Of a stretch of DNA of 64,000 bases, positions 6,924-39,151 are shown piece by piece. Each line of letters opens with the position of its first letter. Positions within the stretch are counted from its first letter, which is position 1. Source of the DNA: Candidatus Gottesmanbacteria bacterium (lineage in GTDB: Bacteria; Patescibacteriota; Microgenomatia; UBA10105; UBA927); the NCBI GenBank assembly GCA_030679255.1, contig JAUXTO010000042.1:44714-108713 (forward strand). The letters run 5' to 3'. Both the position numbers and the translations under genes were made by a program. The notes beneath the pieces were generated by a model that was not told the DNA's origin, did no database searches, and was given only the letters and a program-made list of their open reading frames with translations.

Positions 6924-6998
6924 GGGTCGGTAGCTCAACGGTAGAGCAGTAGCCTTTTAAGCTATTGGTTCTGAGTTCGAATCTCAGCCGACTCACCA
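6924..6998 (+). tRNA. tRNA-Lys (anticodon UUU)
   Basis: Manual fold: acceptor GGGTCGG/CCGACTC (one G-U), D-arm GCTC-AACGGTA-GAGC, anticodon stem GTAGC/GCTAT loop CTTTTAA, T-arm CTGAGTTCGAATCTCAG, encoded CCA. Confidence 0.85.
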
Positions 6999-31533: not shown

Positions 31534-31605
31534 GGCCCCATCGTCTAGCGGTTAGGACAACGGGTTTTCAGCCCGTTTACACCAGTTCGAATCTGGTTGG
31601 GGCTA
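31534..31605 (+). tRNA. tRNA-Glu (anticodon UUC), CCA not encoded
   Basis: GGCCCCATCGTCTAGCGGTTAGGAC start typical of tRNA-Glu; anticodon arm ACGGG-TTTTCAG-CCCGT; T-arm ACCAGTTCGAATCTGGT. Confidence 0.8.
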
Positions 31606-34108: not shown

Positions 34109-34244
34109 GCACCAAATTCCAATATTCAAGCATCAAATAAATCACAAGCATCAAATGAAAATAAACAAGAAGTAATTCGTGTTGTTTATATATTAGTACT
34201 TGTGTTCGTTTGTTTGGTGCTTGGCACTTGATGCTTGGAATTTC
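34105..34244. repeat. dispersed imperfect-palindromic intergenic repeat, copy A
   Basis: words CCAAATTCCAA / CAAGCATCAA / TTGGTGCTTGGCACTTGATGCTTGGAATTT shared with copies at 39650 and 47818; ends at start codon. Confidence 0.5.
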
Positions 34245-35594
34245 ATGAATACATTTAGTCTTTTCCCTCCTACTATCATGCACGTCGATCTCAATTCGTG
34301 TTTTGCCAGTGTGGAGCAGCAGGCAAACCCGTTACTTCGGGGAAAACCAATTGTCGTAGCCGCCTACACGACCGACAGAGGGTGTATTTTAGCAGCGTCT
34401 GTAGAAGCCAAACGCCTGGGCATCAAAACCGGCATGCGGGTGGGGGAAGGGAAAGCATTGTACCCGCGTCTCGTCGTCCTTGCACCGGATCCGGAAAAGT
34501 ACCGGTGGGTCAATAGGAAGCTCTTCGCGCTTCTTTCCTCCTACACGCCGCATATTTCGGTCGAATCCATTGATGAGATGGTGATGGATTTACGCGACAC
34601 TCCAGCGTTAGAGCGTCACATCAAAGGATTGACAGGGTCTCGCCCTGTCAATAAACAGGGCGAGACCCCTACAAGCCAACACATTGACGCTATGATTTGT
34701 ATTGGTAAAAATATCAAGAAGCGCATCAAGGATGAGATTGGCGAGTGGCTCACGGTCTCGATCGGCATTGCGCCCAATCGATATCTGGCCAAAGTCGCCT
34801 CAGGGCTCCATAAGCCCAATGGACTGGATATCATCACCCAAGAAAACATTGAGGAGATCTTTACCGGACTTCGGCTTGAGGATTTATGCGGTATCAAGGA
34901 AGGCAACGCAGGGAGACTTCGGATGGCCGGCATCAATACGCCGGTTGAGTTTACCCGCGCTTCGGCAGCAGCACTGGTTGCCGCACTTCACAGTAAAACA
35001 GGTTTGAGTTGGTGGCAGCGGCTCCATGGGTATGAAGATGGGGTCATGTATAAAAATTTTAATCAATCAGAAGATATTCAGAAAACTTTCGGGCAATCAT
35101 TTGCTCTGGGTACCCCGCGCGTGCCGAGCGATCCACAGACAGCAAAAATTATGGCTCAGCTCATCGTCAAGATGGGCCGGCGGCTTCGCGGTGCGGGCTT
35201 TGTGGCTCAGGCGTTGAGCGTGTCATTTTTATTTTCCGATTATTCTCATTGGGTGAAGAATATACGGACAACGGAGCCTCTGTTTGCCGATAGTGATTTT
35301 TTAGCGCATGCCGGTAAACTTTTAGTGATGGCGCCACATAAACCCGTGAGAATTCTTGCCGTGACCAGCTTTCATTTGAGCGCGCGCGGATCGGGGCAAA
35401 TAGGACTATGGAATACCGATGAGACGAAATGGAAAATTACTGATGCTCTGGATGCCATTGCCAATCGGTGGGGTGAGTTTGCGGTTACGCCGGGCCGCAT
35501 GTTGGGGATGGAACCCGCTTCGACTCGCGAGTCAGGGCGAGTTCAGCGAGGCGAGCAGAAGGTGCAGGACAGGATAGCGTTCGGGAAAGTATAA
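34245..35594 (+). CDS. Y-family DNA polymerase (DinB/UmuC-like); start trimmed to MNTFSL
   Basis: MHVDLNSCFASVEQ...GKPIVVA...catalytic palm motifs of Y-family polymerases. Confidence 0.8.
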   Translation: MNTFSLFPPTIMHVDLNSCFASVEQQANPLLRGKPIVVAAYTTDRGCILAASVEAKRLGIKTGMRVGEGKALYPRLVVLAPDPEKYRWVNRKLFALLSSYTPHISVESIDEMVMDLRDTPALERHIKGLTGSRPVNKQGETPTSQHIDAMICIGKNIKKRIKDEIGEWLTVSIGIAPNRYLAKVASGLHKPNGLDIITQENIEEIFTGLRLEDLCGIKEGNAGRLRMAGINTPVEFTRASAAALVAALHSKTGLSWWQRLHGYEDGVMYKNFNQSEDIQKTFGQSFALGTPRVPSDPQTAKIMAQLIVKMGRRLRGAGFVAQALSVSFLFSDYSHWVKNIRTTEPLFADSDFLAHAGKLLVMAPHKPVRILAVTSFHLSARGSGQIGLWNTDETKWKITDALDAIANRWGEFAVTPGRMLGMEPASTRESGRVQRGEQKVQDRIAFGKV

Positions 35595-35689
35595 AAATTA
35601 TAAAAATTTAGTTCTTGACGAATGAATACTCGGTAGGGTAGTGTAGAGATACAATTTAATATATCCAGAGTGACGGGCTAAACGGAGAA

Positions 35690-35830
35690 CTCACTTCATA
35701 GCCGTCCAGCAACCGACCCCGAGCTTGTCGAAGGTCACGGTGCTCCCATGAGCCCCCGCAATAGGCGGGGAATGATAGGCCCCATAGGGAAACAAAAAAC
35801 TCTCCTTAGGGAGAGTTTTTTCGTATTGAA
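35690..35830 (+). promoter_or_regulatory. structured GC-rich leader with intrinsic terminator (35794-35821) upstream of metK; riboswitch-like, class not assignable
   Basis: stems GACGGGCTA/TAGCCGTC and CCCCGC-aatag-GCGGGG; terminator AACTCTCC-ttag-GGAGAGTT+T6 ending 35 nt before metK ATG. Confidence 0.4.
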
Positions 35831-35855
35831 ATGTGTTTTTTATGAAAGGAGTACT

Positions 35856-36959
35856 ATGAAAACTTTTTTTACCTCTGAGTCGGTGGCTTCGGGCCATCCT
35901 GATAAAATTTGTGATCAGATATCCGATGCGATTGTAGACGCAGCGATAACCGTTGATCCCCAGTCACGCGTCGCGGTAGAAACGCTCGTGACCACCAATC
36001 GGATTGTTTTAGCGGGAGAAGTCACCTGTTCCAAGCGGTTGCCGTATGAATCGATTGCTCGTCGCGTCATCCATTCACTTGGGTACACTACTGGTATCTA
36101 TAATTTTTCGCATCATTCGCCGATGTCTATCTATATCCATGAGCAATCTCCGGATATTGCCCAAGGGGTTGACACCGGCGGCGCGGGTGATCAGGGCATG
36201 ATGTTTGGCTATGCATGCCGGGAAACGCCGGAGCTTATGCCGCTGCCTATTATCCTCGCTCATCGACTCGTTGAACGTATGGACGAGGCGCGTGAAAATA
36301 AGACCTTGGCGTTTTTGCGTCCTGATGGAAAAAGTGAAGTAAAAGTTGCCTATGAAAAAGGTAAACCTATTAGCGTCGAGCATGTGGTGTTAGCCGTCCC
36401 GCACGATCCCAAAGTGACAAACGAGGAGGTTAAGGGCATGTTGATCGCTCAGGTGATCAAGCCCGTGATGAAACAATATGGACTGGCGATGCTGAAGGAA
36501 AAAGATGTCATCGTCAATGGCACCGGTAAGTGGGAAATAGGCGGTCCGGCTTCCGATACCGGAGTCACGGGAAGGAAAATAATTGTTGATACATACGGGG
36601 CCTATGCGCGCCACGGTGGTGGATGTTTTTCCGGGAAAGATCCGACGAAGGTTGACCGGAGCGCGGCGTACGCGTGCCGGTACATCGCCAAAAATGTCGT
36701 TGCGGCGGGCCTTTCTGACCGCGCGGAAGTGCGGGTGGCATACGTGATCGGGCATCGGGAACCGATCGCCAAATCCGTCGAATGCTTTGGGACAGAGAAA
36801 AAATCCATCAAGGCTGTGGAGCAATTTGCCTGGAAGCTTTTGGATTTGTCCGTTCCCGGAATCCTAGAAGGACTATCTCTGCGGCAGCCGATTTACCAGA
36901 AGACCGCCCGCTACGGCCATTTCGGACGGGATGGATTTCCATGGGAAGTAGTACTGTAG
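35856..36959 (+). CDS. metK: S-adenosylmethionine synthetase
   Basis: FTSESVASGHPDKICDQISDAIVDA and GGGAFSGKDPTKVDRS motifs; start trimmed to MKTFFTSE. Confidence 0.9.
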   Translation: MKTFFTSESVASGHPDKICDQISDAIVDAAITVDPQSRVAVETLVTTNRIVLAGEVTCSKRLPYESIARRVIHSLGYTTGIYNFSHHSPMSIYIHEQSPDIAQGVDTGGAGDQGMMFGYACRETPELMPLPIILAHRLVERMDEARENKTLAFLRPDGKSEVKVAYEKGKPISVEHVVLAVPHDPKVTNEEVKGMLIAQVIKPVMKQYGLAMLKEKDVIVNGTGKWEIGGPASDTGVTGRKIIVDTYGAYARHGGGCFSGKDPTKVDRSAAYACRYIAKNVVAAGLSDRAEVRVAYVIGHREPIAKSVECFGTEKKSIKAVEQFAWKLLDLSVPGILEGLSLRQPIYQKTARYGHFGRDGFPWEVVL

Positions 36960-37049
36960 GAAAAAAGTATAATACTACATAGTACTGTACTTTTGCATAA
37001 TCAGCAGTAAGCTGGAGTTATTGCGCGGCATTCTATACAATAGCAATCA

Positions 37050-38306
37050 ATGACTGATTATCGGCCATTGGCAGAGATTTTGCGGCCCAAAACTCTCGAT
37101 GAGGTCGTTGGGCAGGATCATTTAGTGGGAGCGTCTGGAATCATCCGGAAAATGTTGGGGAGCACCTTCCTCCCTTCCATGATTTTCTGGGGGCCGCCGG
37201 GTTCGGGAAAAACGAGTCTTGCATTTCTTTTGGCAACATTGTCCAACGCACATTTTGTCGCCAAATCCGCGGTAACGTCTTCTCTTGCCGAAGTCCGTAC
37301 CATTGTCAAAGAAGCTCAAGCGCTTTTGGATTCATCGGGACAGAGGACGGTTTTTTTCCTCGACGAGATTCACCGGTTTAACAAGGCACAACAGGATGCG
37401 CTTCTTCCCCACGTCGAACATGGCACGGTCATCTTCATCGGGGCAACGACCGAGAACCCTTCGTTTGAAGTCATATCGCCTCTCCTTTCGCGTTGCCGCG
37501 TCCTCGTTCTCAAGCCTCTTGAAGACAAGGATTTAAACGCGATTATAGATCGGGGGTTGTCATACCTGAAAAGAAAATTAGATGATGATGCCCGCACGTT
37601 CCTTAAGGAAGTTGCCAATGGTGACGGGCGAGCATTATTAACCATTTTAGAAATTTCAGCCCGTTTGACTGATTCAAAAATTACCCGAAATAAGTCAGGC
37701 ACGATACCGGCCCGCCTGCCGGCGAGGCAGGGAATCAAACGATCAAACAGTATCAGTGCTTCGGATATCGAGGAGGCGGCACAGAAGAAGATGTTGCAAT
37801 ATGATCAGACTGGCGAGGAACACTACAACACGATCAGCGCGTTTATCAAATCCATGCGGGCAAGCGATATAGACGCGGCACTTTATTACTTGGCGCGTAT
37901 GGTCGCAGCCGGCGAGGATCCGCTTTTTATTGCCCGCCGCATGGTGATATTTGCTTCCGAAGATATTGGACTAGCTCAACCTACCGCCTTGGTCGTTGCC
38001 AACGCAGTCTTTGACGGCTGTCATAAGGTCGGCTATCCGGAGGCGCAGATACTGCTCGCCCACGGCGTGAGTTACTTGGCTCAGGCCAAGAAGGACCGGA
38101 GCGCCTACGACGCTTTTTTTGCCGCTCTTAGTGATGTCAAACAATTCGGCAATCTTCCGATTCCGCTCATGATCCGCAACGCACCCACGAAACTTATGAA
38201 AGATTTGAATTATGGGAAGGGATATCAAAAGTATACGACAGAAAGCTTGCTACCGGAGAAACTGAAAGGAAAAAAGTATTACAATAGGACTGGGTCGTCC
38301 GCCTGA
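37050..38306 (+). CDS. rarA: replication-associated recombination protein A (AAA ATPase)
   Basis: GPPGSGKTSLA Walker A, DEIHRFNKAQQDALL. Confidence 0.85.
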   Translation: MTDYRPLAEILRPKTLDEVVGQDHLVGASGIIRKMLGSTFLPSMIFWGPPGSGKTSLAFLLATLSNAHFVAKSAVTSSLAEVRTIVKEAQALLDSSGQRTVFFLDEIHRFNKAQQDALLPHVEHGTVIFIGATTENPSFEVISPLLSRCRVLVLKPLEDKDLNAIIDRGLSYLKRKLDDDARTFLKEVANGDGRALLTILEISARLTDSKITRNKSGTIPARLPARQGIKRSNSISASDIEEAAQKKMLQYDQTGEEHYNTISAFIKSMRASDIDAALYYLARMVAAGEDPLFIARRMVIFASEDIGLAQPTALVVANAVFDGCHKVGYPEAQILLAHGVSYLAQAKKDRSAYDAFFAALSDVKQFGNLPIPLMIRNAPTKLMKDLNYGKGYQKYTTESLLPEKLKGKKYYNRTGSSA

Positions 38307-38426
38307 CCTTACTTCTCGCCTTTTCAATTCTATTCGAATACGGCTCGAAGAGCGGTCTTAGGCGGATGTAAGAAACACTAAGCCTCGAAATCTCGGCAAG
38401 TGTTTCTAACAGGAGGTGAATGAGCT

Positions 38427-38681
38427 ATGGATATTCAAATCGGGAAAGTGACACATTATTATGACAAAATATTTGTCGCAGTGATTACGGTCATGAACCA
38501 GCCGCTTAAAGTCGGCGATACCGTGAAAGTATCGGGGCATGATAATGAGTTTACCCAGAAGATTACGTCCCTGCAGATAGAACACGATCAGGTACCAAGT
38601 GTCGCCGTTGGGGAGACCTGCGGCATGAAAGTAGACCAACCGGTCAAGGCTGGGGACGTGTTATACTTGATGGGTTCATGA
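38427..38681 (+). CDS. hypothetical small beta-barrel protein
   Basis: 84-aa ORF with RBS aggagg. Confidence 0.35.
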   Translation: MDIQIGKVTHYYDKIFVAVITVMNQPLKVGDTVKVSGHDNEFTQKITSLQIEHDQVPSVAVGETCGMKVDQPVKAGDVLYLMGS

Positions 38682-39151
38682 AAATAGCATTATCAGCCGG
38701 CGGGGTCATCATATGCTCTGATCATAATGAATGGTATGTCCTTATGTTAAAGGACATGAATGGCGCCTGGACGTTTCCGAAAGGGATGATCGAAATTGGG
38801 GAAACGCCTCAAGAGGCAGCAGTACGGGAAATTCATGAAGAAACCGGTATTTCCGGTATTACATTGCTTCATCCGCTTCCTCCTATACACTATTTTTATA
38901 AGCGTAACGGGACGGTCAAAAAAATGGTACACTATTTTATTTTTCAGTCGAAAACCCGCGTCATCCCTCACGTACAGAAAGAAGAAGGAATTCAGGAAGC
39001 CAAGTGGGTGGGTATTGAAGACGCGATTGCTACCATTGGCTACCGGGAAACAAATGTGCAGTTGTTAGAAGAGACGAGAAAGAAGATTACGACAATGGAC
39101 AATAAACAGAAAACAGGAAGCAGTAAAGAGGAAAAACTAAATAACAGATAA
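38678..39151 (+). CDS. NUDIX hydrolase
   Basis: GMIEIGETPQEAAVREIHEETGI Nudix box. Confidence 0.75.
   Translation: MKIALSAGGVIICSDHNEWYVLMLKDMNGAWTFPKGMIEIGETPQEAAVREIHEETGISGITLLHPLPPIHYFYKRNGTVKKMVHYFIFQSKTRVIPHVQKEEGIQEAKWVGIEDAIATIGYRETNVQLLEETRKKITTMDNKQKTGSSKEEKLNNR

Follow-up and report, generated by a model that had tools for sequence, protein, structure and literature searches.

A probable SAM-I-lineage riboswitch and its intrinsic terminator precede metK in Candidatus Gottesmanbacteria

What kind of RNA lies ahead of metK, the S-adenosylmethionine (SAM) synthetase gene, in a Candidatus Gottesmanbacteria bacterium? We analysed 64,000 nucleotides of contig JAUXTO010000042.1 (assembly GCA_030679255.1, positions 44,714 to 108,713; hereafter the window, numbered from its first letter). 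A 261-nt gap separates a Y-family DNA polymerase gene from metK, and a first-pass annotation had placed in this gap a riboswitch-like leader ending in a terminator. Our analyses indicated that the metK leader (35651-35821) most probably combines a SAM-sensing riboswitch from the SAM-I lineage with a downstream intrinsic terminator, a reading to which we assign a probability of roughly 0.8. The fold, its conservation and covariation, the homology with SAM-I, the terminator and the link with metK were established computationally. From the conserved core and the regulated gene we infer that SAM is the ligand; the OFF logic of the switch and its antiterminator strand are likewise proposed.

The leader and its fold

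The leader folded better than expected by chance, with a minimum free energy (MFE) z-score of -3.9, and none of 200 dinucleotide shuffles folded as well. On the + strand, positions 35662-35821 hold a conserved, covarying RNA and then the intrinsic terminator; the aptamer (35662-35777) is a four-way junction made of helices P1 to P4. The parts are listed below. Counts out of 13 leaders refer throughout to the window and 12 related metK leaders on Gottesmanbacteria-like contigs; RF00162 (SAM-I), RF00634 (SAM-IV) and RF01725 (SAM-I/IV) are Rfam families.

35662-35665, + strand: 5' strand of P1, UAUC, pairing with GAUA (35774-35777) over 4 bp only; invariant in 13/13 leaders
35666-35671, + strand: J1/2, CAGAGU, containing the AGAG core of the SAM-I binding pocket; AAGAG in the consensus of RF00162 and RF01725
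35672-35706, + strand: P2, GACGG(G)CUA...UAGCCGUC; P2a and P2b covary across relatives
35690-35693, + strand: 5' strand of pseudoknot PK-1, CUCA, in the P2 loop, pairing with UGAG (35749-35752) in J3/4
35708-35744, + strand: P3, with base AGCA/UGCU, a bulged A, CC/GG and a variable distal hairpin; aligns to P3 of RF00162
35745-35753, + strand: J3/4, CCCAUGAGC, holding the 3' strand of PK-1
35754-35770, + strand: P4, the internal hairpin CCCCGC-AAUAG-GCGGGG that completes the four-way junction; aligns to P4 of RF00162
35771-35777, + strand: J4/1 (AAU) and the 3' strand of P1 (GAUA), from the leader comparison, RNAalifold and the RF00162 alignment
35780-35789, + strand: extra hairpin H5, CCC-CAUA-GGG, 2 nt after P1; at the same place in 13/13 leaders
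35794-35821, + strand: intrinsic terminator, AAAAAACUCUCC-UUAG-GGAGAGUUUUUU, from the terminator scan listing

The AGAG of J1/2 is found in 12/13 leaders and is replaced by GGAG in the leader L187. P2a (GACGG/CCGUC) is extended by CUA/UAG with a bulged G, P2b is GGAG/CUUC, and the internal loop of P2 is asymmetric, with AAC (35681-35683) opposite A35698; the P2 loop reads AACUCA (35688-35693). The core motifs GCAACC (35709-35714) and GGUGC (35739-35743) lie within P3, and A35748 of J3/4 pairs with U35773, an A-U pair that becomes C-G in L187. H5 is followed by an A-rich tail (35790-35798) and aligns to the 3' hairpin of RF01725. The terminator has a 12-bp stem, a 4-nt loop and a run of six U (-15.0 kcal/mol); 34 nt separate it from the metK ATG at 35856. 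A hairpin with a U-run was found at this position in 13/13 leaders, the hairpin being followed by U6-7 in 12 of them.

The three hairpins named in the first-pass annotation (35672-35706, 35754-35770 and the terminator) are therefore all present, and its intrinsic terminator before metK was confirmed by the terminator scan and by three Pfam domains in the metK product. Its start at 35690 had to be corrected: the element begins at about 35651-35662, 28 nt further upstream if 35662 is taken, and a start at 35690 omits P1, J1/2 and half of P2.

The ends of the leader are also complementary. The 5' leader ACAAUUUAAUA (35651-35661) can pair at 10 of 11 positions with UAUUGAAAUGU (35824-35834), just past the terminator, and the MFE fold pairs these ends. 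In L161 the counterpart pairs at 11/11 positions, including two G.U pairs. Such a helix would require a read-through transcript. Relatives without a spacer after the terminator lack it, and it may be due to chance in A/U-rich sequence.

Related leaders and kinship with SAM-I

Close relatives were collected by a protein search with MetK, which returned many MetK sequences 74-89% identical to that of the window, followed by exact-protein look-ups of contigs. This gave 12 further distinct leaders (L161, L164, L165, L175, L178, L180, L183, L185, L187, L188, L189 and L190). MetK scans of genome and metagenome contig collections returned, among the matches listed, only metK genes at most 60% identical, and these distant genes were reused as a test set for the covariance model R1 described below. 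The same element precedes metK in all 12 related loci, and it stays with metK where the upstream gene differs or is on the other strand (L175, L178, L185 and L187).

Each leader was cut by hand into 38 segments, which were checked to rebuild the real sequence. Every helix was kept across the leaders and the core nucleotides were essentially unchanged. P2a occurs as GACGG/CCGUC, GAUGG/CCAUC or GGUGG/CCACC; P2b as GGAG/CUUC, GUG/CAC, GAA/UUC, CAG/CUG, GAG/CUC or CAC/GUG; and the base of P3 as AGCA/UGCU, GGCA/UGCC or GACA/UGUC. P4 exists in six versions, including CCGC/GCGG, CUUCGC/GCGGAG, CCCGAC/GUCGGG and CCCCGAU/AUCGGGG. H5, the post-P1 hairpin known from SAM-I/IV and SAM-IV, covaries in 13/13 leaders (CCC/GGG, UCCAAAA/UUUUGGA, UCUAGUAA/UUACUAGA, UCCACA/GUGGA and UCCUGAA/UUCAGGA), and the terminator stem is found as ACUCUCC/GGAGAGU, ACUCACC/GGUGAGU, ACACUCC/GGAGUGU or AUCCCGC/GCGGGAU. 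PK-1 has six pairing versions (CUCA:UGAG, UUCA:UGAA, CUCG:CGAG, CUAG:CUAG, UUGG:CCAG and UUCG:CGAG). In A1, a trimmed alignment of 11 relatives from which the window was left out, 99.1% of the cells were paired, against 27-42% when the partners were slid, and 0/500 shuffles reached the observed values. Fifteen of the 29 pairs showed changes on both sides, pseudoknot included (3/4 pairs of PK-1). Covariation held likewise on the real sequences aligned by a covariance model, and RNAalifold independently recovered P1, P2a, P3 and P4 from an unedited MAFFT alignment.

R1, a covariance model built from the relatives alone with the window excluded, gave a single match in the window (35658-35793, 59.7 bits, E = 2.6e-12). 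When R1 was run on 160 metK loci from other phyla, ten weak matches (19-35 bits) were obtained, and each fell on a bona fide SAM-I riboswitch scored by Rfam at 69-87 bits. R1 also matched L001, a locus of another Patescibacteria genome, with 46.3 bits; L001 has no Rfam match at E <= 1e-3. This cross-detection of SAM-I riboswitches indicates that the leader family is homologous to SAM-I while lying outside Rfam annotation.

In the L001 metK leader (L001:1722-1890; metK 60% identical), P2 is a straight helix of 9 bp with no internal loop and P4 is minimal (UCCU-GAAG-AGGA); a post-P1 hairpin (CCCUU-GUCG-AAGGG) and a terminator are also present. Judged from these elements, it looks like a further variant nearer SAM-I/IV.

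Rfam models recognised the window leader below threshold. In E-value mode the best match was RF01725, over the full model (1-99) with 34.6 bits (E = 4.9e-4; gathering score 41.1), and RF00162 matched 35662-35777, H5 excluded, with 25.5 bits (E = 4.9e-4; gathering score 44.4). The relatives matched RF00162 best, with 31.9-38.9 bits, likewise sub-threshold. In the RF00162 alignment P1, J1/2, P2a, P3, J3/4, P4 and J4/1 fall as annotated above, P1 aligning to P1, and only the kink-turn (K-turn)/P2b part is skipped. The absence of a covariance-model hit, which the first-pass annotation had named as counter-evidence to a riboswitch, thus holds formally at the gathering score only. The same annotation had reported SAM-I motifs as missing; the core is present in order (UAUC/CAGAG at 35662-35670, GCAACC, GGUGC, and AAUGAUA at 35771-35777), and the K-turn motif (GGAGGGA/GAUGAA) is the only SAM-I motif truly missing from the window. 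Its suggestion of a SAM-type attenuator leader before metK is borne out, as far as sequence comparison can indicate, by the sub-threshold full-length Rfam matches, the covariation in 12 relatives and the R1 match. A SAM-II/IV/VI-like or novel SAM class, as it had considered, agrees poorly with a core, a four-way junction and a P2-loop/J3/4 pseudoknot that are those of SAM-I, and with the detection of SAM-I by R1. Rfam thresholds miss the element because the usual K-turn is lost, the closing helix is very short and an extra hairpin is present. The leader is best assigned to a divergent variant of the SAM-I lineage (Rfam SAM clan), neither SAM-II/VI-like nor a new class.

Similarly to SAM-I, the leader has a P1-P4 junction whose helices are supported by covariation or invariance, the core motifs AUC-AGAG, GCAACC, GGUGC and GAUA, a pseudoknot of the same topology and an intrinsic terminator after the aptamer; it lies upstream of metK in the window and in 12 related loci, and R1 and RF00162 detect each other's members. 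Unlike SAM-I, it carries an AAC/A internal loop in place of the K-turn, a conserved extra hairpin directly after P1 and no obvious antiterminator built on the 3' strand of P1, and its RF00162 score is below gathering. With SAM-IV it shares the 4-bp P1, PK-1, a P2a and P2b parted by a non-K-turn internal loop, and a hairpin directly 3' of P1 (P5 in SAM-IV), all features of SAM-IV according to PMC6890682. SAM-IV has no internal P4, whereas that of the window (35754-35770) covaries, and SAM-IV has a second pseudoknot, PK-2, between the P3 loop and the 3' tail, which was not detectable in the window leader. SAM-IV was defined in Actinomycetales, and the window element comes from a bacterium of the candidate phyla radiation (CPR). 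PK-2 was sought in all 13 leaders: the best duplexes between the distal part of P3 and the tail had energies of +1.1 to -5.6 kcal/mol, none with a shuffle p below 0.14, and L161, the closest relative, has none. The window leader thus departs from SAM-I in two respects (gathering score and K-turn) and lacks defining features of SAM-IV and of SAM-I/IV. Collectively, the leader RNA is a mosaic: its junction, P4 and PK-1 are those of SAM-I, its short P1 and its P2 without a K-turn recall SAM-IV, a hairpin follows P1, and PK-2 is missing.

The K-turn is conserved in SAM-I aptamers (PMC2258182), where it serves to kink P2 so that the P2 loop can dock (PMC4316175). In the window, the 3' strand of P2, CUUCAUAGCCGUC, contains no GA dinucleotide, so that tandem G.A/A.G pairs cannot form, and the AAC/A loop has its longer side on the 5' strand, an asymmetry inverse to that of the K-turn. 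A canonical K-turn was found in L164, L165, L187, L188 and L189/L190. That of L178 is near-canonical, with A at position 2n; when the same change (G2nA) was engineered into SAM-I, folding in the riboswitch context was retained (PMC4316175). A k-junction-like layout was seen in L183 and L185, where an extra hairpin directly follows the G.A-forming GA of the non-bulged strand; the P2 of both (L183:1285-1345 and L185:1379-1437) keeps the K-turn signature, 5' G-GA and 3' GUU-GA-U or GAC-GA-U. L161 and L180 have a three-way junction in P2 with neither G.A pairs nor K-turn, and the window and L175 have a bulge only. PK-1 is retained throughout all these forms. An engineered SAM-I riboswitch in which the K-turn was swapped for a pk-turn still binds SAM, and in related species other kinks take the place of K-turns (PMC4316175). 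The k-junction is known from thiamine pyrophosphate riboswitches (PMC4005666); our literature search found no report of it in SAM-I. The metK leader family resembles these functional replacements in showing such exchange in nature.

Proposed control and competing explanations

By analogy with known systems, the overall logic is most likely classical S-box attenuation, OFF at high SAM. When SAM is plentiful, it would bind the junction and lock the 4-bp P1 and the junction strands; the pyrimidine-rich 5' arm of the terminator, ACUCUCC, would be left free, the terminator would form and RNA polymerase would stop before metK. At low SAM, the unliganded core would instead offer a purine-rich strand to ACUCUCC, and their pairing would allow read-through into metK. 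Candidate antiterminator strands are J1/2 (AGAGU; candidate A) and the 3' arm of P4 with J4/1 (GGGGA; candidate B). In transcripts cut before the 3' arm of the terminator, the MFE fold pairs ACUCU with the AGAGU of J1/2, replacing P1, in 10/13 leaders. Candidate B, in which the 3' arm of P4, J4/1 and the 3' strand of P1 pair with the 5' arm of the terminator, forms 5-8 bp, reaches -7 to -11.5 kcal/mol in 9/13 leaders and is longest in the most divergent ones (L183, L187 and L189). It is closer to the classical design than candidate A, yet needs P4 to be opened.

Other arrangements were tried and rejected. A local antiterminator, pairing the 5' arm of H5 with the 3' arm of the terminator and the 3' arm of H5 with its 5' arm, was 3.5-8.7 kcal/mol worse than H5 plus terminator; being absent in 5/13 leaders, it is not conserved. 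Pairing of the P4 3' arm (GGGG) with the H5 5' arm (CCCC) appeared by eye far weaker than P4 plus H5. An extension of P1 with the 5' leader showed no conserved pairing, the length of this leader varying between 5 and 12 nt.

Several observations weigh against a SAM-I-lineage attenuator. At gathering thresholds, the Rfam scan of the 64-kb window returned two tRNAs and no riboswitch. The K-turn is absent from the window copy, and its P1 has 4 bp, where the canonical metK leaders collected here have 7-8 bp. A1 was registered to the structure by hand, and the 13 sequences are related, hence not independent. Shuffle p values were 0.01-0.83 for the J1/2 pairing and 0.02-0.77 for the P4/J4/1 pairing; neither antiterminator candidate is clearly above chance or convincing, and purine- and pyrimidine-rich tracts pair easily anyway. 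The J1/2 helix has only 5 bp against the 12-bp terminator stem, and the P4 option requires melting of a stable P4.

Some of these observations would fit a constitutive structured leader with a terminator, or a decayed riboswitch that has ceased to sense anything, in which case the terminator might serve the upstream polymerase gene: no Rfam match reaches the curated threshold, the K-turn is lost, P1 is short and no convincing antiterminator was found. We consider this very improbable. Across 13 lineages, compensatory changes have preserved every helix and the pseudoknot, and the nucleotides of the core hardly vary within the family. The element accompanies metK despite a different or opposite-strand upstream gene, and it is separated from the upstream gene by a conserved promoter-like site. 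The same fold could also recognise another ligand, such as S-adenosylhomocysteine or another SAM derivative. The peripheral architecture is unusual, and PMC6847200 describes altered-specificity subgroups in other riboswitch families, such as guanine/2'-deoxyguanosine variants. The gene regulated here, by contrast, makes SAM. The positions that contact SAM in SAM-I, namely the A-U and U-A pairs of P1, the G of J1/2, the A of GCAACC and the U-G of GGUGC, were mapped through the RF00162 alignments and are unchanged, leaving another ligand highly improbable.

Two further explanations concern the class of the aptamer and the mode of control. The leader could belong to the SAM-I/IV family, RF01725, which gave its top Rfam score over the full model. 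It shares with this family a SAM-I-like core, a metagenomic origin and, after P1, a hairpin and A-rich tail that align to the family 3' hairpin with high posterior probability and resemble by eye the GGCCC-GAGA-GGGC-AAC of the crystallised env87 RNA (sequence in PMC5393176). SAM-I/IV, however, has an undivided P2, no PK-1, and PK-2 (PMC6890682; PMC2864571), whereas the P2 of the window is divided by an internal loop, its PK-1 covaries and PK-2 found no support. The score lies below gathering and the close relatives score best with SAM-I; membership in RF01725 is largely refuted and we regard it as improbable. Alternatively, a real aptamer could act mainly on translation, or in a dual manner, its hairpin sequestering a GGAG ribosome-binding sequence rather than stopping RNA polymerase. 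In support, the 3' arm of the terminator contains GGAGAG, and 'aggag' occurs in the corresponding 3' tail of the Rfam SAM-I/IV consensus. In L175, where no other Shine-Dalgarno sequence precedes metK, the terminator 3' arm is some 12 nt from the ATG and may double as one. The U6-7 after the hairpin in 12/13 leaders is the signature of an intrinsic terminator, and the window has a separate AAAGGAG outside the hairpin, making termination the likely main mode there; mainly translational or dual control is unlikely. We therefore retain a SAM-sensing riboswitch of the SAM-I lineage that acts through termination as the preferred reading.

The metK locus and significance of the leader

The surroundings of the leader comprise the following features.

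34200-35594: Y-family DNA polymerase gene (Pfam IMS), upstream neighbour of the leader
35615-35644, + strand: promoter-like site, with -35 TTGACG (35615-35620), an 18-nt spacer and -10 TAGTGT (35639-35644)
35845-35851, + strand: Shine-Dalgarno sequence of metK, AAAGGAG, read directly from the sequence
35856-36959, + strand: metK, the regulated gene, encoding an S-adenosylmethionine synthetase of 367 aa (Pfam PF00438, PF02772 and PF02773)

A site TTGAC[GA]-N17-19-TAnnnT is found 16-19 nt ahead of the 5' strand of P1 in 10/13 related leaders. A generic promoter scan did not list the window site. The sequence of the site suggests that transcription probably starts near 35651, about 10 nt before P1, and its position between the upstream gene and P1 assigns the terminator to the metK leader and not to the upstream gene. 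Between AAAGGAG and the metK ATG are 4 nt; the U-run is 24 nt upstream of AAAGGAG.

The window MetK is 100% identical to a protein annotated in a Candidatus Gottesmanbacteria metagenome-assembled genome, as found by protein search. Downstream of metK lies a gene for a RarA/MgsA-type AAA ATPase. The order IMS polymerase, metK, RarA/MgsA ATPase, small EF-Tu-domain-2-like open reading frame (ORF), NUDIX hydrolase (34200-39151 in the window) is common to many related contigs (L161, L164, L165, L180, L183 and L188). An in-frame ATG at 35748, within J3/4, is the start of a 403-aa ORF (35748-36959) spanning P4, H5 and the terminator before it continues as metK. Among database homologues of MetK, several have lengths of 389-452 aa; the called metK start of P0075 lies inside the H5 hairpin of the riboswitch, and that of P0021 lies upstream of a better, Shine-Dalgarno-preceded ATG. 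The window also contains two tRNA genes (6924-6995 and 31534-31605).

In two lineages a small Cys-rich ORF stands between the riboswitch terminator and metK (L165:1262-1477, L166:1154-1477 and L179:1265-1504), and from this position it would be SAM-regulated jointly with metK. Its two versions, of 71-79 aa, have MSRN and the pattern C..C...CPxCH in common. Pfam searches with the Cys-rich ORFs of these relatives gave nothing significant, only insignificant zinc-ribbon hints, and no such ORF is present in the window.

SAM feedback on metK is ordinary biology, and the basic picture of SAM-dependent metK attenuation is unchanged by this leader. In the literature searched, we found no paper linking SAM-I riboswitches with CPR/Patescibacteria. 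The series of K-turn replacements and the SAM-I/SAM-IV mosaic are of some value for structural and evolutionary work on RNA. The related leaders form a natural series: some retain the SAM-I K-turn, and in others it is weakened, has become a k-junction-like three-way junction or is gone. The pseudoknot that the K-turn is supposed to enable persists in all of them. The presence in one RNA of an internal P4, as in SAM-I, and of a post-P1 hairpin, as in SAM-IV and SAM-I/IV, bears on the relations among the classes of the SAM clan. It is conceivable, though on balance doubtful, that the metK leaders of Gottesmanbacteria/Patescibacteria make up a distinct sub-class of this clan, a mosaic of SAM-I and SAM-IV. 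If so, H5 would be an integral part of the aptamer, compensating for the 4-bp P1, and the K-turn would be dispensable, its place being taken in nature by a k-junction, a three-way junction or a bulge. As a living intermediate, this sub-class would show how the peripheries of SAM-I, SAM-I/IV and SAM-IV interconvert, and it would use an unusual antiterminator in which the terminator arm pairs with junction strands of the binding pocket itself. The leader suggests that ultrasmall CPR bacteria use SAM riboswitches which current Rfam thresholds leave unannotated.

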